A DNA stretch of 64,000 nucleotides from Candidatus Kapaibacterium sp. (GCA_046328995.1 JAXLVN010000001.1:39477-103476); one strand, 5' to 3'. Counted from the first letter of the stretch, positions 1 to 60,959 are shown. Made by a program: numbers and translations. The notes: generated by a model from the sequence alone, not told the origin.

Positions 1-184
1 GTGATGATACGCTCGTCTAGCGGAGAAGATATCGATGCAGCGTGTGGGCAATTGGCGTTTTCAAAAGTAGCCGAACAGCATGCGGCGGCTGTATCACTAT
101 AATTCATCTCCTGCCTATCGAATCGGACTGCTACTCTACACATCTGCGTCAATAATCGTACTCCCACTTATACAGGTGATCTAC

Positions 185-1129
185 ATGAATGTACTTCGCA
201 ATCTGACAGCTATGCTTGCTTTCGTGCTTGTAAGCGTATTTCCCCTCTCAGCGGCACTCGCGTCCGACTCAACGGATGAGGCGTCGATGGTGCAAAAAAT
301 TGAACCTTCCGACACCAAAAAACACTATGTTCGGCTCAAAAACGGGGATATTCTCACCGGATTTGTTCTTGAAATCATTACCGATGAAAAGGAGGGTGCA
401 GGAATAAAGATCAAAACAGCGATTGGTATTGCTACCATATATGCATCCCAGATTGCGGATATCCGCTTGCTTGAAGAGGCGAATCGCCATACGCACAGAG
501 TGTATATTATGCCGACAGCAGAGCCGATTGGTACCAATCATTTTATCAGTAATTTCGAAGGCGTATTTCTGTATGCCGGTGCAGGATGGAAATTCCTGTC
601 GGTGACTGCAGGACGGACATTTGTGCCGACGGTGCCGGGTTCGGAGCAATTCTCCCTGCTGACGGCAAAAGCAACCGTCTATCAGGGTGACAATGACTAT
701 ATGGCAGGGGGTGTATCGATTGCCCTAGGAGGCAGTCTTGGCTTTTTGAATGCAAAAAATGCTTTGCAGCACATTTTTGGCGCGGCGACGTTTACGATGA
801 CGAAGACCAAGCTCACAGGACTCGTTTTCTATAAGGCAGGGGCGCAGGATTTTTTCACGGCGACGGCCGGCACTCTTGGGAGTGTCAATGTCAAGTATCC
901 GAACGGTGCATTCGGGATAGGAATAGGTATCGATACCAAGCTCAGCGAATGGAATGATTTACGATTTATAGCCGAGGGATGGAACAACGACATCGCTGTT
1001 CCCATGAATGCAGCGGCGCTGCTTGGTATTCGCATAGGGAACACCTCAGTTTCCGCTGATTTTGGAATTGCGGTCTTCCCGGCGCCGGCAATCGTACCCT
1101 GTGTAAGCTTCGCATGGACGCCGTTTTAA
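185..1129 (+). CDS. Hypothetical outer-membrane protein (signal peptide, C-terminal Phe, beta-barrel-like)
   Basis: ORF 80..1129; internal Met at 185 gives MNVLRNLTAMLAFVLVSVFPLSAALA signal peptide; Gly/Ala/Thr-rich alternating strands; terminal ...AWTPF typical of OM beta-barrels. No recognisable family. Confidence 0.45.
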   Translation: MNVLRNLTAMLAFVLVSVFPLSAALASDSTDEASMVQKIEPSDTKKHYVRLKNGDILTGFVLEIITDEKEGAGIKIKTAIGIATIYASQIADIRLLEEANRHTHRVYIMPTAEPIGTNHFISNFEGVFLYAGAGWKFLSVTAGRTFVPTVPGSEQFSLLTAKATVYQGDNDYMAGGVSIALGGSLGFLNAKNALQHIFGAATFTMTKTKLTGLVFYKAGAQDFFTATAGTLGSVNVKYPNGAFGIGIGIDTKLSEWNDLRFIAEGWNNDIAVPMNAAALLGIRIGNTSVSADFGIAVFPAPAIVPCVSFAWTPF

Positions 1130-1224
1130 GTCCTGATTTTCGTTCATTATTTCAATAATCTGAAAAAAAGTTTTGGGTAAATAAAGAAAAGAGTGTATTT
1201 TCGCGCTCTCTAAAACGAGAAAAT

Positions 1225-1297
<73 letters not shown>

Positions 1298-1302
1298 CCC
1301 TA

Positions 1303-1340
1303 AAGCGTTTAATACGAAAGTGTTAAACGCTTTTTTTTAT
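1303..1340 (+). terminator. Rho-independent terminator after tRNA-Phe
   Basis: Hairpin agcgtttaa-tacgaaagtg-ttaaacgct followed by tttttttt. Confidence 0.6.
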
Positions 1341-1372
1341 TGGTAAATTCCGTCCTGTCAGTTGTTTCCCAC

Positions 1373-1547
1373 CGACCATCAACCCTTCCCTCCCAAACAC
1401 GCAACAAGCAAGCATAATGCTCCCGCATTTCCTGAGATTTTGTAAATTTTAGTAGGAAAAGGAAGGTAACTCTATCTGAGGTACGGATGTGAACGTTTCA
1501 GCGGCGAGTGCTGGTGTTTGGTTGTAGTTACCGACCGGACGGGGGAA
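1373..1547 (+). repeat. Conserved ~175-bp intergenic element, copy A1 (cassette-boundary repeat)
   Basis: Shares core cgcatttcctgagattttgtaaattNtagtaggaaaaggaaggtaac...ctatctgaggtacgg...cgtttcagcggcgagtgctggtgtttggttgtag with copies at 3822-4011 and 4524-4718, a 5'-truncated copy at 5697-5808 and a degenerate copy at 2430-2640; ends 38 bp upstream of the next ORF. Confidence 0.7.
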
Positions 1548-1584
1548 TAAACATGACATGTACTATTAATTAGGAGCTGATCAA

Positions 1585-2379
1585 ATGGCAACCTTGTGCA
1601 AAAAAATACTCAGTAGTGCGTTGAGTCTGCTTTTTTTCTTTGTCATCTCATGTACTAAAACAGCTCCTCTCAGAATAAAACAGCCACCATCAACATACCG
1701 AACAGATTGGCATAATAGTTATAAAAACTATACAAATTCATTAGAGGATGCTGCTGAATATATGCCCGGAGATGATGGAGGTGCTATAGGTATGAGAATA
1801 GCTGAAAAGTCACAGCAATTGGTTAATTACCAAAAATTGAAAGCATATATAGATACCATATCAACCCTAAATTCTTGTATAGTGAGAATGTTTAATGAAA
1901 ATATGTATTTTACCACTTTCAATGTATCAAAAAAAAAGATACCATTTGATGGAAAAAAATACCATTTATTTGTAGAAGGGGTTGAATATCCCATGGGGTA
2001 TGTAGATACTTCAGATTGCGTTTGGTTTGTGAAAAACGCAGACAACGTTTTACATTGTATTTATCTCTCTTCCAACGGCGAGGTGCAGGATGAAAAATTG
2101 CCTTATGACAATGCTTTGGAAACCTCTTTACATACAATGCAACGTTGGAAGAAGAGTCGCCAAGTGAGCATTCCCTATGAAAAAAAGTATGGTACGATTG
2201 TGAGCTATTGGGATAAAGGAAACTCATATCATGTATTTTTTCCGTGGATGTGGAATGCTGCTGATTGTGAAAATGGGTGGAAATGTGCAACAAAAGATAC
2301 TTCTGTAAATAATCTGCATTCAGCTATAATGAAATTTCTTTGCATGGCAAAACAAAAGGGTATCGTGGAATCTCAATAG
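1585..2379 (+). CDS. Hypothetical lipoprotein (AT-rich cassette ORF 1)
   Basis: 264-aa ORF with aggag RBS; N-terminus MATLCKKILSSALSLLFFFVISC (lipobox-like ISC); low GC relative to flanks; no recognisable domain. Confidence 0.55.
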   Translation: MATLCKKILSSALSLLFFFVISCTKTAPLRIKQPPSTYRTDWHNSYKNYTNSLEDAAEYMPGDDGGAIGMRIAEKSQQLVNYQKLKAYIDTISTLNSCIVRMFNENMYFTTFNVSKKKIPFDGKKYHLFVEGVEYPMGYVDTSDCVWFVKNADNVLHCIYLSSNGEVQDEKLPYDNALETSLHTMQRWKKSRQVSIPYEKKYGTIVSYWDKGNSYHVFFPWMWNAADCENGWKCATKDTSVNNLHSAIMKFLCMAKQKGIVESQ

Positions 2380-2429
2380 AGAAGGATACAAAAAAATTAG
2401 GACCGTGCATTTCCAGACCGGGCAGTACT

Positions 2430-2640
2430 TTGAGCTGCCCGTCAACACGTACCGCAGAAACGCACTGCACGAAAACATCATCCACCGCTTGCCGCTGAGA
2501 AGCAATAGTATATGGATACGATTTTGTAACTTGTAACCGGTGTAGGAAGTAAATACGTATCCGCAGTTCTGCTGCCCTTGACGTTTCCATAGGCTAGTGT
2601 TGACGGACAGTTGGAAACAACCGACTGGACGGAACCCATA
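2430..2640 (+). repeat. Degenerate copy of the A element (A1')
   Basis: Segments taccgcagaaacgcactgcacgaaaacatcatccaccgcttgccgctgagaagc and gattttgtaacttgtaaccggtgtaggaagtaaa...ggacagttggaaacaaccgactggacgg align with the A-element 5' region and core; ends 14 bp before ORF 2654. Confidence 0.45.
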
Positions 2641-2653
2641 ACCATTATGTAAT

Positions 2654-3202
2654 ATGAAATTTATAGTACTTACATTACTAAGCATTTGTGTTATTACTCA
2701 AGATATAACGCTTCAGTTTTATGAGTATGTGTTAAATGATACCATAAACAGTAGCTTTCTAGTTATTGATATAAAACAAAAATCAATTACTAAAAAAGCA
2801 ATTATCGAAAACACGTACTTAACTCAATATTTTACACTTGCTTTGTCCGATACGTTCAATCGAAAAAGCTATATGAGTATGATGAAAAATAATTTGATTC
2901 ATCATATACCGATTGAGATAAACGATTCCATACTGAAAAATCATCCTGAAATTGTATTTAGTGACATTACACCAACAGAAACTGTGACCGCAAACTCATT
3001 GAAAGGAGTTGATGCCTTTTTAGATATTTATTTCAACAAAAACCGAACGCTGAAATCAAGTAGCTATGGTAGCCAAGTACCTGCTATTATTCAAAAGCTA
3101 TTTGAATGGGGAATAACTACCTATCGTGACCACGAAACACAATTACTATGTTATCATACATTCAAGCCGTTGAAGTATCAACCAAGAACAGGACTGGAAT
3201 AA
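2654..3202 (+). CDS. Hypothetical secreted protein (cassette ORF 2)
   Basis: 182 aa, hydrophobic N-terminus MKFIVLTLLSICVITQ; AT-rich; no recognisable domain. Confidence 0.5.
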   Translation: MKFIVLTLLSICVITQDITLQFYEYVLNDTINSSFLVIDIKQKSITKKAIIENTYLTQYFTLALSDTFNRKSYMSMMKNNLIHHIPIEINDSILKNHPEIVFSDITPTETVTANSLKGVDAFLDIYFNKNRTLKSSSYGSQVPAIIQKLFEWGITTYRDHETQLLCYHTFKPLKYQPRTGLE

Positions 3203-3221
3203 ATCTTATACCCTAAAATAT

Positions 3222-3725
3222 ATGAAACCCTTCATTTATCTATATTCATACATAGCATTTACGGCGTTTTTTATCACTGCTTGCGAGAATAAAACCGAAA
3301 AGGTACCTATTAACCAGAAATCAGAGGTGCTCTTGGGTCACTATGGGGATACGATACAGCTTCGCAGTCCACTTGACAGCTTATTATTGGAATTTGTGGA
3401 ACAAAATCATCTGAATAATATCCATGGTCAACTATATATTAACAAAGTATATCAAGATACCACAGTTATTACCATTGTCTCAAGACAATATATTATTTCT
3501 GAAAGTTCATACGCAGAGCATATATTTGCACATCCATTATTTTATGTAAAAATTAAGAATTGTGTTTTTGATGTTTATACGGGTATTGAAGATGAATTTG
3601 ATTCAAAATTTATATATCCTACGTATGTTCGAGATACTTCAAATTTCATTGTTTGGAGAGTTGATCAGGTCAACGGTCATTTAAAAAGGAATAGAGTAGA
3701 TGATGATATTCCATTCTTTCGTTAG
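3222..3725 (+). CDS. Hypothetical lipoprotein (cassette ORF 3)
   Basis: 167 aa; MKPFIYLYSYIAFTAFFITACENK lipobox-like ITAC; 19-bp gap after ORF2 with no repeat element between them. Confidence 0.5.
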   Translation: MKPFIYLYSYIAFTAFFITACENKTEKVPINQKSEVLLGHYGDTIQLRSPLDSLLLEFVEQNHLNNIHGQLYINKVYQDTTVITIVSRQYIISESSYAEHIFAHPLFYVKIKNCVFDVYTGIEDEFDSKFIYPTYVRDTSNFIVWRVDQVNGHLKRNRVDDDIPFFR

Positions 3726-3821
3726 TGATATTTTGATCTACCTCCAGAATTAGTGGACACTTAGGAAAAGCATTATAGCAAGTATTATCCTATTCAACTT
3801 CTTGACAGCTCAGGTGATTTA

Positions 3822-4011
3822 CCTGACCATCGACACTTCCCGCCGAAACACACTGCAAGCAAGCATCATCCACTGCTAGCAAGTGTAACGCTCCCGCATT
3901 TCCTGAGATTTTGTAAATTGTAGTAGGAAAAGGAAGGTAACCCTATCTGAGGTACGGATGTGCATACGTTTCAGCGGCGAGTGCTGGTGTTTGATTGTAG
4001 AAAGCGTACGG
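3822..4011 (+). repeat. Conserved intergenic element, copy A2
   Basis: Near-identical core to A1/A3 (…cgcatttcctgagattttgtaaattgtagtaggaaaaggaaggtaaccctatctgaggtacggatgtgcatacgtttcagcggcgagtgctggtgtttgattgtagaaagcgtacggac). Confidence 0.7.
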
Positions 4012-4079
4012 ACAAGTATTATTTCAGCTTGTAAATTTAAAACACGTCAACTACAAGATGTTTTAACTAAGAAATTTTT

Positions 4080-4397
4080 ATGGTAAATGATATAAAGTTG
4101 ATGGATAAAATCCAATTACAGAAGTATATTTTTCTTCTTGAGTTGTTAATCACAAAGAAAATTGAAACTGATACTTTTGAGAAATATTTCCTGCAAACTA
4201 GAAGACTTGATAGTTATTGGTTAACCGGTTCTTTTGATCCAATAATAGAAAGAGTTCTGAATACATTTTTTTTAGATGTTGACGAGTACAATCCAGAAAA
4301 TCTATATGATCCAAATGATCAGTATAATATTAATGAAAATGAACTTCTAAAACGTGCAGCAATAGTATTTGTGAAGTTGAAAGATATGATAGGTTAA
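4080..4397 (+). CDS. Hypothetical cytoplasmic protein (cassette ORF 4)
   Basis: 105 aa, no signal peptide, acidic; AT-rich; resembles small immunity-type proteins only by size and context. Confidence 0.45.
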   Translation: MVNDIKLMDKIQLQKYIFLLELLITKKIETDTFEKYFLQTRRLDSYWLTGSFDPIIERVLNTFFLDVDEYNPENLYDPNDQYNINENELLKRAAIVFVKLKDMIG

Positions 4398-4523
4398 AGT
4401 TGGAAATTGAATGTTTTTCCTCTGAACCGTCCGAATAGTGCATTGTGTGATAAAGAAATATCATGCTTCCGTCAGCGGAGAGATCGAACAAAAAGGAGCA
4501 TATTATTTCCTTCCGGTTGGATG

Positions 4524-4718
4524 TTCCCCACCTATCATCATACTACCCGCCGAAACGCTCTACAAACAAGCATCATCCACTGCTTACAACTATAACGCTT
4601 CCGCATTTCCTGAGATTTTGTAAATTGTAGTAGGAAAAGAAAGGTAACCCTATCTGAGGTACGGTGTGCATACGTTTCAGCGGCGAGTGCTGGTGTTTGG
4701 TTGTAGTTACCGACCGGC
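4524..4718 (+). repeat. Conserved intergenic element, copy A3
   Basis: ...cccgccgaaacgctctacaaacaagcatcatccactgcttacaac...cgcatttcctgagattttgtaaattgtagtaggaaaagaaaggtaaccctatctgaggtacggtgtgcatacgtttcagcggcgagtgctggtgtttggttgtagttaccgaccggccagg; 3' end matches A1. Confidence 0.7.
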
Positions 4719-4732
4719 CAGGAAATCTTATT

Positions 4733-4894
4733 GAAGTTGTTTAGGATTATTTTTAGAGCCGATTTTTGGGGTAGAAAACATGCTGACTATGACCGGTATG
4801 CTGTATTTCCAAATGAAAAACAGGCGTCTTAGCCGCCCTCAACTATGGAGGTAAAGCAATGTTTCGCTCTCCGTTGAAAATACTAAACAACTTC
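4733..4894 (+). mobile_element. MITE-like 162-bp element with ~14-bp terminal inverted repeats, copy B1
   Basis: Starts gaagttgtttagga, ends tactaaacaacttc (inverted repeat); almost identical (3 mismatches) to copy at 5356-5517; no coding capacity of its own. Confidence 0.5.
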
Positions 4895-4922
4895 ATTGAT
4901 TATTTAACTTCGCCAATTGATA

Positions 4923-5357
4923 ATGAACGAAAAAAAATCCCAAAAATCGTATATGGAAAAAATCTCTTGGTATTGGAATTTGATTCACTTCTTATTCTTT
5001 AAAATTGATATTTATGCAGCAAAAGTGATAACCAGCCCTATACGATGGTTAGGCAACGCAATAATAAATACAGAACCTTTTAAAAAAAGATTAGAGAAAA
5101 ATGGATCATCGCCGGAAGAATTTACTAAGCAACTTCGTAGTCAAAACGACAACCCAAAGACTAGTAATAGCATTTATATTGCTGGAGGAGTTACAGGAAG
5201 TTTGATTGGATTTACGATTTTTAGCCTTTTTAATTTATTACAGATAATTATCGATGTAAATTTTTTCAAATATATAGTAAATAACGAAATGTACTGGCTC
5301 GTAACTATTTTTGCTTTGACTATACCACCATTGCTTTTCAACCATTCTATTTTATGA
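4923..5357 (+). CDS. Hypothetical membrane protein (cassette ORF 5)
   Basis: ORF track uses TTG at 4917; ATG at 4923 (MNEKKSQKS...); two predicted TM segments (LIGFTIFSLFNLLQIIIDV, WLVTIFALTIPPLLF); flanked by B1 and B2 elements. Confidence 0.45.
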   Translation: MNEKKSQKSYMEKISWYWNLIHFLFFKIDIYAAKVITSPIRWLGNAIINTEPFKKRLEKNGSSPEEFTKQLRSQNDNPKTSNSIYIAGGVTGSLIGFTIFSLFNLLQIIIDVNFFKYIVNNEMYWLVTIFALTIPPLLFNHSIL

Positions 5358-5517
5358 AGTTGTTTAGGATTATTTTTAGAGCCGATTTTTGGGGTAGAAA
5401 ACATGCTGACTATGACCGGTATGCTGTATTTCCAAACGAAAAACAGGCGTCTTAGCCGCCCTCAACTATGGAAGTAAAGCAATGTTTCGCTCTCCGTTGA
5501 AAATCCTAAACAACTTC
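5356..5517 (+). mobile_element. MITE-like 162-bp element, copy B2
   Basis: gaagttgtttagga...tcctaaacaacttc with perfect 14-bp TIR; begins at the stop codon of ORF 4923-5357. Confidence 0.5.
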
Positions 5518-5696
5518 TATATAAAAATGATAAATATTTACAATATTTCAAGAAGTTTAATAAAATGTCAAAAGAGCAGAGAAAGAGGGATTACTGGATA
5601 TCGTTTATCATCGTATTTTCTATGGTAATTTTCATACTGGGCAGTTTCATACTTTATATTCAAGTAAAGCCGGGGTTTAACTAAAAGAATTTTCCC

Positions 5697-5808
5697 TGTT
5701 GTAGTAGGAAAATGGAAGTAAACCCTATCAGAAGCATGAACGTGCATATATTTCAGCAGCAGGTGTTGGCGATTGATTGTAGAAAGCGTACGGACGGGGA
5801 AATAGAAA
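5697..5808 (+). repeat. 5'-truncated, diverged copy of the A element (A4)
   Basis: ttgtagtaggaaaatggaagtaaaccctatcagaagcatgaacgtgcatatatttcagcagcaggtgttggcgattgattgtagaaagcgtacggacgggg aligns to the A core 3' half; 3' end matches A2. Confidence 0.55.
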
Positions 5809-5993
5809 ATTAGAACCGAAAATTATACGTTCCGATATTTCTCAAAACTGCCTTAAAATCCTACCAGGTAGTATGATTGTACATTGCTTTCGATCGCTCT
5901 GTAATTATCCAATAGCGTTTTCTTGGAAAGTGGTACACGCTGATTTGTTGTTGTTTCTGTGCAGATATTCTTATTTTTATCGCTAACAATACA

Positions 5994-7187
5994 GTGGATA
6001 TGACCATGAAATTTCTACTAGTTATACTCTTTACTTTTGTTCTTTCGAATTGTGCTTTTGGGCAACTTCAGCCCTATATGCTCAGTGCGCAAATTGATAG
6101 CCTGCTCCGTGTGGATACCACAGGTTGGAAACACCAAACTGCCGCCGTGAACTACTCAATGATTGGAGCATATATGCAGTCCCTACAAGCCAGGGACAGG
6201 GAATTCCCGAATGCTCGGGGTGCTGAACCAACTCACGAACAACACATGCAGTTCAGTCAATTCACGCCGGTGGATGCGAGAAAGGCAATACTGGAAGAAG
6301 CCACCAAAACGCGCGTACTGATCCTTAATGAAGCGCATCATAACAGTTTGCATCGGATTTTCCTGGCTGACCTCTTACCCGATCTCCATAAACTTGGCTA
6401 TACGTTTATCGGGATGGAAGCGCTCAGTGCTGCCGATACACAATTGCATCGCCGCAAATATCCGGTCATTCAAAGCGGCTATTATACGAAAGAACCGTGT
6501 TTTGGGAATCTTATCAGAGAAGCGCTGGATATTGGATATACGGTGTTTCCGTACGAACAGGATGTTGCCGACAGTGCTCAGGTAAAAGCAGGACGTGAAA
6601 AGGCACAAGCGCTAAACATTGCAACAATCATCAATCGTCATCCGAAGGCAAAAGTACTTCTCTATTGCGGATATGACCACGCTGCAGAAGATACTTTACG
6701 GAATTTCATGGGGTTACCTATGGCAGGGCAACTCAAACTTCTCACCGGAATTGACCCATTTACCATCGACCAAACGGCACTCACCGAATATGTTGTCGTT
6801 GGCAACAGATACCGAAAATTAATACAGGAACGCCATGATGCGGTGTTTGTTGACTCTCAACGACAGTATTTCAACAAAGCTACCTTGCCGAAGAGAATGG
6901 ACTGTAATCTGTACCACCCGAACACAGAATATGAGTATGGCAGACCCACATGGTTGAAAAGAAAAAACACCACATTCGTCCTGCTTCAGGATAAGGTGAA
7001 AATCGACTATCCCTGCCTTATCAAAATATATTTAGCGACCGATGACAAAAGCACTGCCGTACCGATTGACGTGGTGGAAGTCAAATCCGCGAATGAAAAA
7101 GTAGCTTCTGTCATTCTCAAGCGTAGAAAGCACGTAGCAGTCGTCGTCAACGGCAAAGGTGAACAACAAGAATTTCCTGTCAGATAG
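5994..7187 (+). CDS. Hypothetical lipoprotein, possibly ChaN/Tiki-superfamily-like
   Basis: MDMTMKFLLVILFTFVLSNCAFG lipoprotein signal; motifs LILNEAHHNSLHR and LLYCGYDHAAE reminiscent of GExHD-type ChaN/Tiki proteins; family call by eye only. Confidence 0.4.
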   Translation: MDMTMKFLLVILFTFVLSNCAFGQLQPYMLSAQIDSLLRVDTTGWKHQTAAVNYSMIGAYMQSLQARDREFPNARGAEPTHEQHMQFSQFTPVDARKAILEEATKTRVLILNEAHHNSLHRIFLADLLPDLHKLGYTFIGMEALSAADTQLHRRKYPVIQSGYYTKEPCFGNLIREALDIGYTVFPYEQDVADSAQVKAGREKAQALNIATIINRHPKAKVLLYCGYDHAAEDTLRNFMGLPMAGQLKLLTGIDPFTIDQTALTEYVVVGNRYRKLIQERHDAVFVDSQRQYFNKATLPKRMDCNLYHPNTEYEYGRPTWLKRKNTTFVLLQDKVKIDYPCLIKIYLATDDKSTAVPIDVVEVKSANEKVASVILKRRKHVAVVVNGKGEQQEFPVR

Positions 7188-7331
7188 CGTGCATGAGACT
7201 ATCGGAATTGCCGGTGTGTTCGGATGCAGGGAGATATCATTTGCACGCCTAGCTGTTATACTGAATTTGTTCCCATAAATTTCAATTGTGTGTCTATTTT
7301 GATGCAGTAACGCTTTCCTTTTACCCATAGC

Positions 7332-7362
7332 TTTGGAAAAGAATGAAATTATAGTATATTTG
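7332..7362 (+). promoter_or_regulatory. Bacteroidetes-type sigma-A promoter motif (TTTG -33 / TAtaTTTG -7)
   Basis: TTTG at 7332-7335 and TATATTTG at 7355-7362 with 19-bp spacing, ~55 bp upstream of the 7416 start. Confidence 0.4.
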
Positions 7363-7415
7363 TCGTGTTGAATAACTGTTTTCGCTCTATGTTCAATATT
7401 TCCAGGATGTTCACT

Positions 7416-8291
7416 ATGAGAACTCTTCTCCTTATTCTCGCCGTATGCACTCTATTTTCCGGCAAGCTCGTCGCTCAATCCTACCTTTCTCCGCGTGTCG
7501 GTAATGACATTGACCGCATCGAAAAAGAATATTTTGGACTCTTTCCCACAATTAATGGGTTCGTTTCGGCGAAAGCTGTGTCGAAGTCCGAACAATTTAC
7601 GACCCTTACCATTACCACTCACTTCGAGGGGCGCAGAAAAGATACATCCTTGCTCATTGATGCCGGCACAATCGCTAAACTCGCGAAGTATTTCGACAGC
7701 TATGAAACGGTGAGAATGAAGGAAAACACCGTCAACTGGTCTGTTTTTAAAGGAATTGCTGCGGAATCACCGGCGATTAACGATCCATTCCATGAACCCA
7801 TGGAGACGACCATTGAAAGTCTCGACGGAACGAGTATTACGGGTACATTGCTGTGGGCTGAGGACAGTTCGCTTGTATTATGGAAAAGCGAAGAACCCTA
7901 CAATTGGCGAACTCTGGCGCAGAATGCAGGTCCGGTACGTGTCGAGCAGATGAAGCATATTCGCCTCGAGCGTCAGGGTGGATTCACGAGTGGTGCAAAG
8001 ATTGGTGCGTATGCGGGAATTGCGCTTTATATTGTGGGTTTAGGATTGAATTATGAAGATATAAAAATACGAAATTTAGAAAATGTAGCAGGTTATATGT
8101 TCGGAGGTGCTATCCTCACTGCGTGCAGTGCTGTCGCAGGTGGTATTATCGGGTCTATTATTCAGCAGGATTTTCATGCTGATGTCAACGGGAGTATGGA
8201 GAACTATCTACCTCTTGTAGATACCCTTTCCAAATCCTCTGTGATTGAGTCCTATCCGCCGCCGGAATTGGTGCGATTAATTAATAAATAG
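7416..8291 (+). CDS. Hypothetical secreted/membrane protein
   Basis: Internal start MRTLLLILAVCTLFSGKLVAQ (signal peptide); C-terminal Gly-zipper-like TM segments (IGAYAGIALYIVGLGL, GGAILTACSAVAGGIIGSII). Confidence 0.5.
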   Translation: MRTLLLILAVCTLFSGKLVAQSYLSPRVGNDIDRIEKEYFGLFPTINGFVSAKAVSKSEQFTTLTITTHFEGRRKDTSLLIDAGTIAKLAKYFDSYETVRMKENTVNWSVFKGIAAESPAINDPFHEPMETTIESLDGTSITGTLLWAEDSSLVLWKSEEPYNWRTLAQNAGPVRVEQMKHIRLERQGGFTSGAKIGAYAGIALYIVGLGLNYEDIKIRNLENVAGYMFGGAILTACSAVAGGIIGSIIQQDFHADVNGSMENYLPLVDTLSKSSVIESYPPPELVRLINK

Positions 8292-10695: not shown

Positions 10696-13221
10696 ATGGC
10701 GAAGAAAAATCCTCCTGAAACACAGAAACCCCATCTCACTTCACTACCCGAGCTTCAACCTTCTCAACTCTCCTGGCGCTGCCCGGAGGACTTATTTTCG
10801 TTTGAAACCACACAAGAGCTGACGCCTATCAAAGGAATCGTCGGTCAGGAGCGGGCAATTGAGGCGATTCGTCTCGGAGCGCAGTTATATTCTCATGGCT
10901 ACAACACGTTCGTCTCCGGTGTATCCGGTACAGGCCGACTCTCAACGGTGAAGAAAATTCTCGATGAAGTAGCGACTTCGACGCCGGTGCTGTTTGATTT
11001 CTGTTATGTGCAAAACTTCGCCACTCCCGACAATCCACGACTCTTGCGTTTTCCTGCCGGGCAGGGCAGACTCTTTTCGAAGGCAATGGACGAGGCGATT
11101 AGTTTTCTGAAGCGGAGAATACCACAACTCTTTGAAGAAGAAGGATTTCAGCAGAAGCGGCTCTCGCTGATTGATTCCTATCAGCAAAAGGAGCAGGATT
11201 TAATCAGTGAGTTTAATATAAAAATACGGCCGAGTGGGTTCGTCCTCGGGCGCATCGAAACCGAAGACGGCATCCCGCAAACCGAGGTATTTCCGATTAT
11301 AAATGGCAAACCGGTCCCGATTTCGGAGATTGATACCCTTGTCAAGGCAAAGAAAATTACGGCTAAAAAAGCGGAAGAATTACGGGAAAAATATGATACA
11401 CTTCATGATGAATTGTATTCCCTTGCGCGGTTAGGGGTGAAATTAATGCAGAAATTCCGCAGCGGACTCATTGAATTCGACACCACATCGGCATCGCTGA
11501 TTACCAAGACTGTTTTTGACGAAATCCGCAATGACTTTCCGGATACGCGGGTCAATGAATACCTGCGGGATGTGGAGAAAGATTTATTGGAGAATTTGGA
11601 AATATTCGAACCTTCCCTCGGGAAACTACCATCAGAAGTCGCTGAAATTAAAGCAGATGAGAATTCCAAGGAGAAATTTGCCGCCTACTCGGTAAATGTG
11701 ATTTTGGATAATTCGCAGAGTAAAGGCGCGCCGGTAATTGTCGAGACAATGCCGACATTTGTGAATTTGCTGGGCACGATTGAGAAGAAATACGACGCCA
11801 ACGGATTCTGGAAAACGGATTTTACAAAGATAAAATCGGGTTCGCTCCTCCGTGCCGATCAGGGCTACCTGGTCGTCAATGCGCTCGACCTTCTGCGTGA
11901 GGAAGGCGCGTGGCAGATTCTCAAGAAAGCACTCTTGTACGGCAAGCTTGAGATTCAGTCGGTGGATACGTATTTCACGATATCGCAGACATTGCTCAAG
12001 CCCGAGCCGATCGAGCTGAACGTAAAGGTCGTGATGATTGGTGATGAAGATTTGTACCGGGCGCTCTATTTTTCAGAGGAAGATTTCAAGAAGATATTTA
12101 AAGTGAATGCGGAGTTTGACTATGAAATTGACCGGTCGGAACATATGATCCGTTACTACGCGCATTTTATTCATAAAATCTGTGACAGTGAAAATTTACT
12201 GCATGCCGATCGGAGCGGTGTGGCGGCTATTGTCGAGTGGGGAGTGGCGCATACCGAGTCGCAGCAGAAGCTGACGCTGCAATTCAGCGATGTCGCCGAT
12301 TTGCTCCGTGAAGCCTCGTATCATGCCCAGTTATCGGGTGGCAGCTCACCTCTTGTAACACGGAAAAGCGTTCAACAGGCGCTGCAAGCGCGCCGCCGTC
12401 GGAATGAAATGCTTGATGAAAAAATCAAACATCAAATCGTTCAGGAAACGCTGATGATCGACACCACCGGTGAGCGCATAGGACAGATTAACGGACTGAC
12501 GGTCTATAGCACGGGATTAATATCATTTGGTAAACCGGCAAGGATCACGTCAAGTGTCGGAGCAGGGGAGTCGAATATTATTAATATAGAGCGTGAAGTG
12601 GAGCTCAGCGGCAGCACGCACGACAAGGGGGTGATGATTTTAGAAGGATTTATGCGGGAGCGCTTCGCTCAGGTGAGACCGTTGACGCTGTCTGCATCGA
12701 TTGCATTCGAACAGAGTTATGGTGGAATTGACGGAGATTCGGCGACGGCTGCCGAGATTATCGTATTGCTGTCCGGACTCTCAAAACTCCCTATAAAGCA
12801 ATCACTTGCCATAACCGGTTCGGTAAATCAAAAGGGCGACATTCAGCCCATCGGCGGCGTCAATGAGAAGATTCAGGGTTTTTTTGAAATCTGTGCCATC
12901 CGTGGACTTCAAGGAGATCAAGGGGTGGTAATTCCTCATCAGAATGTGCAGGATTTGATGCTGTCGGAGGAAGTGATACAGGCAGTGCGGGAGGGTAAAT
13001 TCCATATATATCCCGTGGCCACTATCGAGCAGGCAGCAGAGCGGATGATGGGGTGCTTGGCAGGGAAAATAAATGATGAGTTTTCCTATCCCGAGGGCAC
13101 AATTTACGGACTTGTTGATGCCCGTCTGATTCAATTGCATGCAGCGACGGAGGGCAGCTCGGACAAAGAACCTCCAAAGAAAGCAGGCACAAAACGCAGA
13201 GCACAAACGCAGGCAGAATAA
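10696..13221 (+). CDS. Lon-family (S16) ATP-dependent protease-like protein, LonB/YcbZ-like
   Basis: Start at MAKKNPP; P-loop-like GVSGTGRLS; C-terminal Lon proteolytic domain with catalytic Ser context GIDGDSATAAE and Lys context PIGGVNEKIQG. Confidence 0.6.
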   Translation: MAKKNPPETQKPHLTSLPELQPSQLSWRCPEDLFSFETTQELTPIKGIVGQERAIEAIRLGAQLYSHGYNTFVSGVSGTGRLSTVKKILDEVATSTPVLFDFCYVQNFATPDNPRLLRFPAGQGRLFSKAMDEAISFLKRRIPQLFEEEGFQQKRLSLIDSYQQKEQDLISEFNIKIRPSGFVLGRIETEDGIPQTEVFPIINGKPVPISEIDTLVKAKKITAKKAEELREKYDTLHDELYSLARLGVKLMQKFRSGLIEFDTTSASLITKTVFDEIRNDFPDTRVNEYLRDVEKDLLENLEIFEPSLGKLPSEVAEIKADENSKEKFAAYSVNVILDNSQSKGAPVIVETMPTFVNLLGTIEKKYDANGFWKTDFTKIKSGSLLRADQGYLVVNALDLLREEGAWQILKKALLYGKLEIQSVDTYFTISQTLLKPEPIELNVKVVMIGDEDLYRALYFSEEDFKKIFKVNAEFDYEIDRSEHMIRYYAHFIHKICDSENLLHADRSGVAAIVEWGVAHTESQQKLTLQFSDVADLLREASYHAQLSGGSSPLVTRKSVQQALQARRRRNEMLDEKIKHQIVQETLMIDTTGERIGQINGLTVYSTGLISFGKPARITSSVGAGESNIINIEREVELSGSTHDKGVMILEGFMRERFAQVRPLTLSASIAFEQSYGGIDGDSATAAEIIVLLSGLSKLPIKQSLAITGSVNQKGDIQPIGGVNEKIQGFFEICAIRGLQGDQGVVIPHQNVQDLMLSEEVIQAVREGKFHIYPVATIEQAAERMMGCLAGKINDEFSYPEGTIYGLVDARLIQLHAATEGSSDKEPPKKAGTKRRAQTQAE

Positions 13222-60251: not shown

Positions 60252-60722
60252 ATGCCTACACATCCACAACCCAATCCTCCTCTCCACACCTTCGGCACTC
60301 CACCGCCAGACGGACTTTGTGCAACCCGGGAAGCAGTCTATGCCGTTGTACGGGAAAAGGATATGATCGCAGCCGTGCAGACTGCACGCGGGTATTTCCT
60401 GCCCGGTGGAGGAGTCGAAGACAACGAAACCGTGATCGAAGCATTGGTGCGGGAAGTGTTTGAAGAACTCGGCTGGGCGATTATTATTCATGACCCGCTT
60501 CCTGTGGTGCAGCAATATCTGTTTTCAGCGGCGAAGCAACAGCATATTCTGACGACGGCACGGTTTTTTAATGCAACGTTTTGCGCCGAGATATGCGAAC
60601 CTCTCGAAGATGACCACAAGCTTGTCTGGCTACATCAATCGGAGGCCGAAGAAATGCTGTTTACCGAGTCGATGCGGTGGGCGGTGAAGCAGATGGGAAT
60701 TCGGTTTTTTTTCAACACGTAG
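60252..60722 (+). CDS. NUDIX hydrolase
   Basis: Nudix box GGGVEDNETVIEALVREVFEELGW. Confidence 0.7.
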   Translation: MPTHPQPNPPLHTFGTPPPDGLCATREAVYAVVREKDMIAAVQTARGYFLPGGGVEDNETVIEALVREVFEELGWAIIIHDPLPVVQQYLFSAAKQQHILTTARFFNATFCAEICEPLEDDHKLVWLHQSEAEEMLFTESMRWAVKQMGIRFFFNT

Positions 60723-60900
60723 AGACGCAAAATCTTGCGTCTCTACAGGATAGGCGGATTATCATTTCCCGTCCTGTCGGTTGGAAACAACCAACCGAAC
60801 CGGAATTCGGTTTTTTTCTACACGTAGAGACGCAAAATCTTGCGTCTCTACAGGATAGGCGGATTATCATTTCCTTCGGTCGGTTGTAGCAACCGACCGT
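60696..60900 (+). repeat. Tandem ~105-bp repeat (2 units), each with a 12-bp-stem hairpin, overlapping the NUDIX stop codon
   Basis: Units cacgtagagacgcaaaatcttgcgtctctacaggataggcggattatcatttcc at 60716-60769 and 60821-60874 (identical); each contains hairpin gtagagacgcaa-aatc-ttgcgtctctac; extra hairpins cggttgg-aaacaa-ccaaccg and cggtcggtt-gtagc-aaccgaccg. Confidence 0.7.
60789..60815 (+). terminator. Putative rho-independent terminator inside the tandem repeat
   Basis: aaccgaa-ccggaa-ttcggtt followed by ttttt. Confidence 0.4.
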
Positions 60901-60959
60901 ACGGGAAATTCGTTATTTCATTGATCATTAAAGAATTATATTTCTCTTACAAGGTGCGT

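Follow-up and report, generated by a model that had tools for sequence, protein, structure and literature searches.

What are the two near-identical 162-nt units that lie close together in the window, by which we mean the whole stretch of DNA analyzed here (64,000 nucleotides from Candidatus Kapaibacterium sp.), and how are they related to the membrane-protein ORF between them? An earlier note on this DNA described them as a pair of MITE-like elements flanking one cassette ORF. In our view, held with a probability of about 0.9, the 162-nt repeats are a MITE that has inserted twice, independently, and that is served by an IS5-family transposase encoded elsewhere. Comparison of the two copies showed 3 mismatches in 162 nt, at element positions 82, 118, and 150, and the borders of both copies were sharp, with the likeness ending abruptly on each side, in agreement with the intervals 4733-4894 and 5356-5517 and with the three differences originally reported. 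The copies are in direct orientation, with their starts 623 nt apart and 461 nt between them. In copy 2 the ends form a perfect terminal inverted repeat (TIR) of 16 nt (GAAGTTGTTTAGGATT / AATCCTAAACAACTTC), and in copy 1 the right TIR carries a single mismatch (15/16), the terminus being TACTAAACAACTTC instead of TCCTAAACAACTTC. The units are thus TIR-bearing, as had been described, but the inverted repeat does not reach to about 30 bp as was then claimed; it is confined to 16 nt, and at element positions 17-30 the ends are complementary at only 4/14. A search with the TIR 16-mer allowing up to 3 mismatches yielded five matches in the window versus 0.76 expected, four of which were the termini of the two copies. 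The longest frame inside the 162-nt element has approximately 24 codons, and the units, earlier judged non-coding, have no transposase coding capacity. The coordinates of the features are collected in Table 1.

Table 1. Features of the two insertion sites and the surrounding array in the window.
Feature	Position	Strand	Remarks
MITE copy 1	4733..4894	.	162 nt; direct repeat D2 and alignment A1; absent in L001/L002
MITE copy 2	5356..5517	.	162 nt; orientation as copy 1; inside the 198-aa ORF; absent in L001/L002
Left TIR, copy 1	4733..4748	+	GAAGTTGTTTAGGATT
Right TIR, copy 1	4879..4894	-	AATACTAAACAACTTC, 1 mismatch
Left TIR, copy 2	5356..5371	+	Pair I8: 16 nt, 100% complementary
Right TIR, copy 2	5502..5517	-	Pair I8
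TSD ATT, site 1 left	4730..4732	.	ATT single in L001/L002, on both sides of the element in the window
TSD ATT, site 1 right	4895..4897	.	L001/L002 empty-site comparison
TSD TAT, site 2 left	5353..5355	.	Empty-site comparison; TAT single there
TSD TAT, site 2 right	5518..5520	.	Empty-site comparison
5' fragment of split gene	4923..5357	+	144 codons, then TGA made at the insertion junction
3' fragment of split gene	5521..5684	+	54 codons, among them those of the last predicted membrane helix; TAA at 5682-5684
R1	1345-1545		Array repeat
R2	2428-2640		Array repeat
R3	3815-4018		Array repeat
R4	4520..4724	+	Directly upstream of copy 1; repeat families D1, D3, D4; alignments A3, A5
R5	about 5690-5798		Array repeat
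tRNA-Phe	1224-1300		Array begins directly 3'

The insertion sites were examined in two public contigs of sister strains, L001 (an activated-sludge contig from ENA, 3363 nt) and L002 (a Logan contig, 906 nt), both of which align collinearly with window 4597-7546 at 96-98% identity and lack both elements. Positions 1-140, 136-596, and 591-2622 of L001 aligned to window 4597-4734, 4895-5355, and 5515-7546, respectively. At site 1 the two contigs read CTT-ATT-GATT, with ATT occurring once where the window has it twice, and at site 2 they read TATTT-TAT-ATAAAAATG, with TAT occurring once where the window again has it twice. The target-site duplications (TSDs) proposed as a check were therefore found at each copy, 3 bp in length, as ATT and TAT. 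Because each copy has a separate TSD, two separate transposition events are indicated: copies 1 and 2 are two independent insertions, without a cassette-flanking role as a pair. Of the recent duplication or insertion first suggested, the insertion is borne out by the empty sites and TSDs, and a local duplication is not, as the sister strains have neither copy. Formally, the history could also be read the other way around, with both elements lost by precise excision in the L001/L002 lineage instead of gained in the lineage of the window.

Two simpler histories of the pair were weighed against these data. A local tandem or segmental duplication of the 162 nt, without transposition, would account for two copies of the same orientation only 623 nt apart, but the sister strains would then be expected to lack one copy and not both, each copy has TIRs and a 3-bp TSD of its own, and the element is also present in unrelated contexts, while an IS with a transposase has these TIRs at its ends (see below); we give this history almost no credence. 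The pair might also be a composite transposon-like unit, whose outer TIRs move the intervening DNA, or which arrived as one ORF-carrying block. Direct copies 461 nt apart with outer TIRs available (pair I4, arms 4729-4748 / 5502-5521) would suit such a unit. However, each copy has its own TSD and the outer flanks differ (ATT at the left, TAT at the right), the intervening DNA is a resident gene that MITE-free strains carry at the same position, and the block holds a truncated gene only and was not found again in another context, contig L127 (described below) being the same locus. A composite unit is accordingly very improbable.

The resident gene encodes a membrane protein of 198 aa. Copy 1 is located in the 5' leader of its ORF, 10 nt downstream of repeat R4 and 28 nt upstream of the ATG (4923), and copy 2 interrupts the ORF, which is intact in the sister strains. 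Deletion of copy 2 and one TAT in silico joined ORF 4923-5355 in frame to 5521-5684, giving 198 aa, and the reconstructed protein had a single match in a large protein collection, the uninterrupted 198-aa protein P0001 (97% identity, 100% coverage), which is encoded on L001 and L002. The junction TGA takes its T from the end of the target and its GA from the start of the element, and the cut-off 54 codons include a strongly hydrophobic stretch, WISFIIVFSMVIFILGSFILYI, as read directly from the sequence. The second copy thus does begin at the stop codon of ORF 4923-5357, as noted before, but instead of a complete cassette ORF, it represents the 5' three-quarters of the 198-aa ORF. The identical 144-aa product has also been called on contig L127, and for annotation, ORF 4923-5357 and the small frame downstream are to be read as two halves of one gene, now probably a pseudogene. 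From these structures we infer an inactivation of the gene, as well as a possible effect of the insertions on expression.

Copies beyond these two, whose count had been called for, were found in public sequences. In a set of genomes, one per species, 89 loci with the TIR GAAGTTGTTTAGGATTWT were detected, only one of which, L076 from a Bacteroidota MAG, has the 162-nt element; this copy is 94% identical and is bordered by TAT at either end, and an unrelated 505-aa gene follows 58 nt downstream. In JGI metagenomes, the 26-nt left end had one match, L114, where a 99% identical copy with an unrelated flank runs off the end of the contig; since this was the only match, the 162-nt subfamily is rare in these metagenomes. 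A scan of viral contigs with the TIR 16-mer gave 22 single hits and no paired ones, consistent with chance. Filled alleles of the locus itself were represented by three contigs, and the samples containing them are ERZ27268179, ERZ27248705, and SRR26348420/22/23. L134 (99.99% identical to the window) begins inside copy 2, at window 5492, and L135 (99.1% identical) stops inside copy 1, at window 4872; contigs breaking inside the element are expected for a repeat. L127 contains copy 1 and the first 26 nt of copy 2, and its left flank ends ...GAGGGGTTAAATAT (...AAATAT) directly before the element. At its start, L135 carries the right end of another copy, followed by TATGAATAAG..., the beginning of a 123-aa ORF absent from the window. 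L127 1-135 and L135 1-75 represent the two sides of a third insertion site, with TAT as its TSD, which in the sister strain's version of the array directly precedes the start codon of the cassette ORF for 123 aa. Five insertion sites of the 162-nt element were therefore found (two in the window, L076, L114, and the third array site of L127/L135), 3/5 of them within this array of approximately 5 kb. The possibility that only two copies exist, as a local tandem duplication, is thereby removed by copies at unrelated sites and by TIRs conserved elsewhere.

Two solitary TIR-like sequences were also observed. One, GAAGTTGAATAGGATA, is located at window 3786-3801 (-) with 3 mismatches, between ORF 3222-3725 and R3; the other, GAAGTTCTTTAGTATTAT, is located at L135 427-444, and its start falls inside the stop codon of the 123-aa ORF, a placement like that of copy 2. 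Each may have been left behind by an older insertion or may match by chance alone.

As for an autonomous parent with a transposase, which the earlier note had proposed to look for, an IS5-family IS with identical TIRs was found in L032, L123, and L124 and is a candidate partner of the MITE. In L032, a Candidatus Kapaibacterium MAG, positions 3748-4679 comprise a 932-bp element with TAT flanks, the identical 16-nt TIRs, and a 275-codon transposase frame interrupted by one in-frame TAA. With the TAA read as Gln, this transposase had the domains DUF4096 and DDE_Tnp_1 (53.9 and 51.9 bits, both above their Pfam cut-offs of 34.3 and 23, respectively) and scored 129 bits, against a cut-off of 110 bits, on the NCBIfam model NF033580 ("IS5 family transposase"). 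Many intact relatives, with 64-84% identity, were present in the protein collection. Among them, P0006 (277 aa) is encoded in 935-bp elements (L123 369-1303 and L124 98-1032) with exactly the same 16-nt TIRs, and P0003 and P0010 are encoded in elements of 931-932 bp with a one-base difference in their TIRs; the partner transposases scored 122-131 bits on NF033580, with P0006, P0003, and P0010 all above 110. Likeness between the MITE and the IS is confined to the terminal 16-18 nt (18 nt at the right end), and the interiors are unrelated. With only these terminal nucleotides in common, the MITE is not a plain internal-deletion derivative of the IS copies found, a situation that is common among MITEs.

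The flanks of the IS copies match in L032 (TAT) and L126 (AAT). In L121, L123, and L124 the flanks are A/T-rich triplets that are unequal on the two sides, and in L120 the right flank is unrelated. ATT is found both as the left flank of L123 and as the right flank of L124, which suggests that the unequal flanks may result from assemblies crossing between copies. Side by side with these, we observed an ORF at L123 1377-1910, beside the intact IS, that is IS30-like when judged by eye from an HWEIDTV motif, and an IS copy without a left TIR at L125 1-145, which is either truncated or chimeric.

No match to the partner transposase was detected by tblastn in the 64-kb window, and a sequence search of the PDB with the transposase found no relative. 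The nearest transposases on annotated plasmids (Cytophagales) were 47-49% identical, and ISBf6 of Bacteroides fragilis had 42% amino-acid identity; with at most 49% identity to any transposase on annotated plasmids, the partner IS is regarded as new. As for its host, the IS in L124 adjoins an EF-Ts gene whose 90% cluster is named Candidatus Kapaibacterium sp., the transposase clusters include members of Kapabacteria and Ignavibacteria MAGs, and a Lon-like protein of the window (10696-13221) is 100% identical to an NCBI protein of a Candidatus Kapaibacterium sp. MAG. On these matches, and on the Kapaibacterium label of L032, the partner IS and the MITE of the window belong to the same lineage, Candidatus Kapaibacterium. 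The IS resembles IS5-family IS of Bacteroidota in its short TIRs starting with GA and its one transposase with DUF4096 and DDE_Tnp_1. Target duplications of 2-3 bp are made by the ISL2 and IS1031 groups. The size of the partner IS, its single ORF, and its 3-bp TSD are compatible with ISL2 or IS1031 (sizes from PMC3196728). In particular, its 932-935 bp and 275-277 aa place it in the same size class as the IS5/ISL2-group elements ISCaa2/3/6 of Amoebophilus, which measure 914-991 bp and have 275-aa transposases (PMC3196728).

The same 16-nt TIRs also bound approximately 40 small elements of 100-174 nt (100, 148, 160, and 174), mostly in Emticicia and a few in MAGs. Among the 39 with readable flanks, 23 had a perfect 3-bp TSD, versus 2/39 in a shifted control, and 16 had none; ATT and AAT were the commonest triplets. 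On this excess over the control, a 3-bp TSD is a trait of the TIR family. The interior of the 162-nt element had at most 59% identity to the Emticicia-type elements or the IS, versus a maximum of 57% for shuffled sequences, and BLAST hits were limited to the termini. The small elements (L028-L113) occupy many loci per genome, in Emticicia soli ZZ-4, Emticicia sp. C21, E. agri, and other hosts, and no transposase of this family was present in the stretches fetched around them. One MITE-rich MAG is labelled Cyanobium sp. NIES-981, a label that is odd beside the otherwise Bacteroidota hosts.

Taken together, the empty sites with 3-bp TSDs, the copies at other loci, and the IS with the same TIRs all favor the original description of the units as MITE-like, non-autonomous, and recent. 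Each copy reached its site in a separate transposition event during the recent past of this Candidatus Kapaibacterium strain, and each insertion duplicated 3 bp of an A/T-rich target. In the mechanism that we propose, an IS5-family DDE transposase, encoded by a 932-935 bp IS (275-277 aa) elsewhere in the genome or community, would bind the TIRs of the MITE in trans, excise or copy it, and insert it through cuts staggered by 3 bp. A preference for A/T-rich triplets may favor the low-GC array in which the window copies are located. That this particular transposase would move this MITE in trans is suggested by the identity of the TIRs, the equal length of the TSDs, and the common host lineage.

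The element shares with those bacterial MITEs that derive from IS elements or are served by them a length of about 100-300 nt, the lack of a transposase gene, TIRs, a short TSD, and several copies, as well as insertion sites both in genes and in their leaders and copies that some strains have and others lack. Correia elements of Neisseria and RUP of Streptococcus pneumoniae are examples of such MITEs, and they typically occur in hundreds of copies. The 162-nt subfamily, in contrast, was found at 5 insertion sites only, and its interior is unrelated to the partner IS. It is also unrelated in sequence to the Correia elements, to RUP, and to the MITEs of Porphyromonas gingivalis, a cited bacterial example (PMC4596501). 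Our general understanding of MITEs and IS5 elements is unchanged by this locus, as the 162-nt MITE and its partner IS are new but their kind is already known. Its value is that a MITE has been caught in the act in an uncultured lineage, the Kapaibacteria of activated sludge, with both filled and empty alleles in public metagenomes and with a freshly inactivated gene and a candidate partner IS within one case. The insertions can be used as strain markers, and the 162-nt repeat is of concern for assembly, as it breaks short-read contigs.

We also considered whether the repeats might be a structured regulatory RNA or a host repeat of the cassette array, such as a riboswitch, a small RNA, or a REP-like sequence. 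Folding of the element, one of the checks proposed earlier, did show that both strands fold well (-49.9 / -47.9 kcal/mol, z-scores -4.3 / -4.9), and weak terminator-like hairpins of 5-7 bp were present on both strands. However, a 16-bp stem, in which the TIRs pair with each other, dominates the fold and explains the z-scores, so that these are not evidence of RNA function and the strong fold lends such a function no support. Furthermore, the homologous cassette of the sister strains is present without the element, copy 2 destroys a coding frame, and promoter-like sites in the region (18) were as numerous as expected (18.3). An Rfam scan of 1-8000 at E<=1 gave no match in the elements or the R repeats, the only hits being tRNA-Phe and a chance lncRNA. 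We therefore consider a regulatory RNA or host repeat extremely improbable. An integron attC or cassette-boundary element was likewise rejected, because the unit is absent from the same cassette in L001/L002 and one copy is inside a coding frame.

The array that received the MITE occupies window 1330-5800, a run of co-directional low-GC ORFs of approximately 4.5 kb, in which a conserved repeat R (approximately 180-200 nt, five copies) precedes each ORF or ORF group. The GC content is 30-39% over most of 1500-6000 (41% in one 500-nt window) versus approximately 47% outside. One array ORF, 4080-4397, matched Colicin_immun (PF09204, E=4.9e-13). Upstream of the array are tRNA-Phe and a 349-aa ORF with no Pfam hit, followed by genes for RlmN, a histidine kinase, a PNP oxidase, an aminotransferase, and a tRNA synthetase. 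No recombinase, XerD-like or integron integrase, was detected among the ORFs scanned in the window or the 10 kb upstream, with no Phage_integrase hit. Folds of single R sequences, examined as attC-like hairpins, were no better than those of shuffled sequences, and in the alignment fold of four R copies the ends pair weakly, as a long-range helix with five compensatory pairs. The array resembles integron cassette arrays and the rAID-1 (recombinase-associated acquired interbacterial defence) arrays of Bacteroidales in its co-directional low-GC ORFs, repeated intergenic sequence, and immunity gene (bioRxiv 10.1101/471110). Unlike rAID-1 and integron arrays, it is without their defining enzyme and abuts tRNA-Phe, and it differs from rAID-1 further in that R is approximately 180-200 nt long and its sequence is well conserved, although its consensus hairpin is weak, and in that its host belongs to the Kapaibacteria and not the Bacteroidales. 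This repeat-delimited, recombinase-less cassette array is a more unusual object than the MITE. Its content also varies between close strains: in L135 1-480, compared with window 1585-2417, a 123-aa cassette ORF replaces the 264-aa ORF 1585-2379 of the window, the contig being 99% identical over 2418-4872.

Recombination between MITE copies could bear on this variation, in that the copies might act mainly as portable homology through which array cassettes are deleted or swapped, the first suggestion of the earlier note; this would be a consequence of the MITE and not an alternative identity. The contig L127 (sample ERZ27268179) joins the left flank of the third site, which consists of a different R copy and a 35-nt leader, to a MITE that matches copy 1 exactly, together with the right flank of copy 1, and its flanking triplets are unequal (TAT versus ATT). 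The third site, seen in L135, belongs to the 123-aa cassette that is absent from the window, and cassette content differs among strains that are 99% identical elsewhere. On the other hand, L127 is a contig of 787 nt that was assembled with k=141, the identity between copies may extend beyond 141 nt, and a chimeric path explains the junction equally well, so that the hybrid junction could be either a true product of recombination between MITE copies or a chimera of the assembly. In addition, both copies in the window have intact matching TSDs, which indicates that no recombination has passed through them. We regard such a main role as unlikely on present evidence. A stronger version of the idea, that the MITE, by inserting again and again in the A/T-rich cassettes, supplies portable homology and perhaps transposase-made breaks to delete, swap, or silence cassettes and so substitutes for the missing integrase, is hinted at by 3/5 of the sites being in the array, the L127 junction, the TIR-like remnant in L135, and the strain-variable cassettes; we consider it speculative and quite improbable, and the reading that we retain is that of a MITE with two independent insertions.

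Outside the array, the window contains a 64-nt direct repeat (60706-60769 / 60811-60874, 98% identical) just upstream of an amino-acid permease gene. The repeat contains a perfect hairpin, GTAGAGACGCAAAATCTTGCGTCTCTAC, and each 64-nt copy is followed by a motif like the 3' end of R (GGTTG...ACCGAC), at 60774-60796 (-) and 60879-60904.
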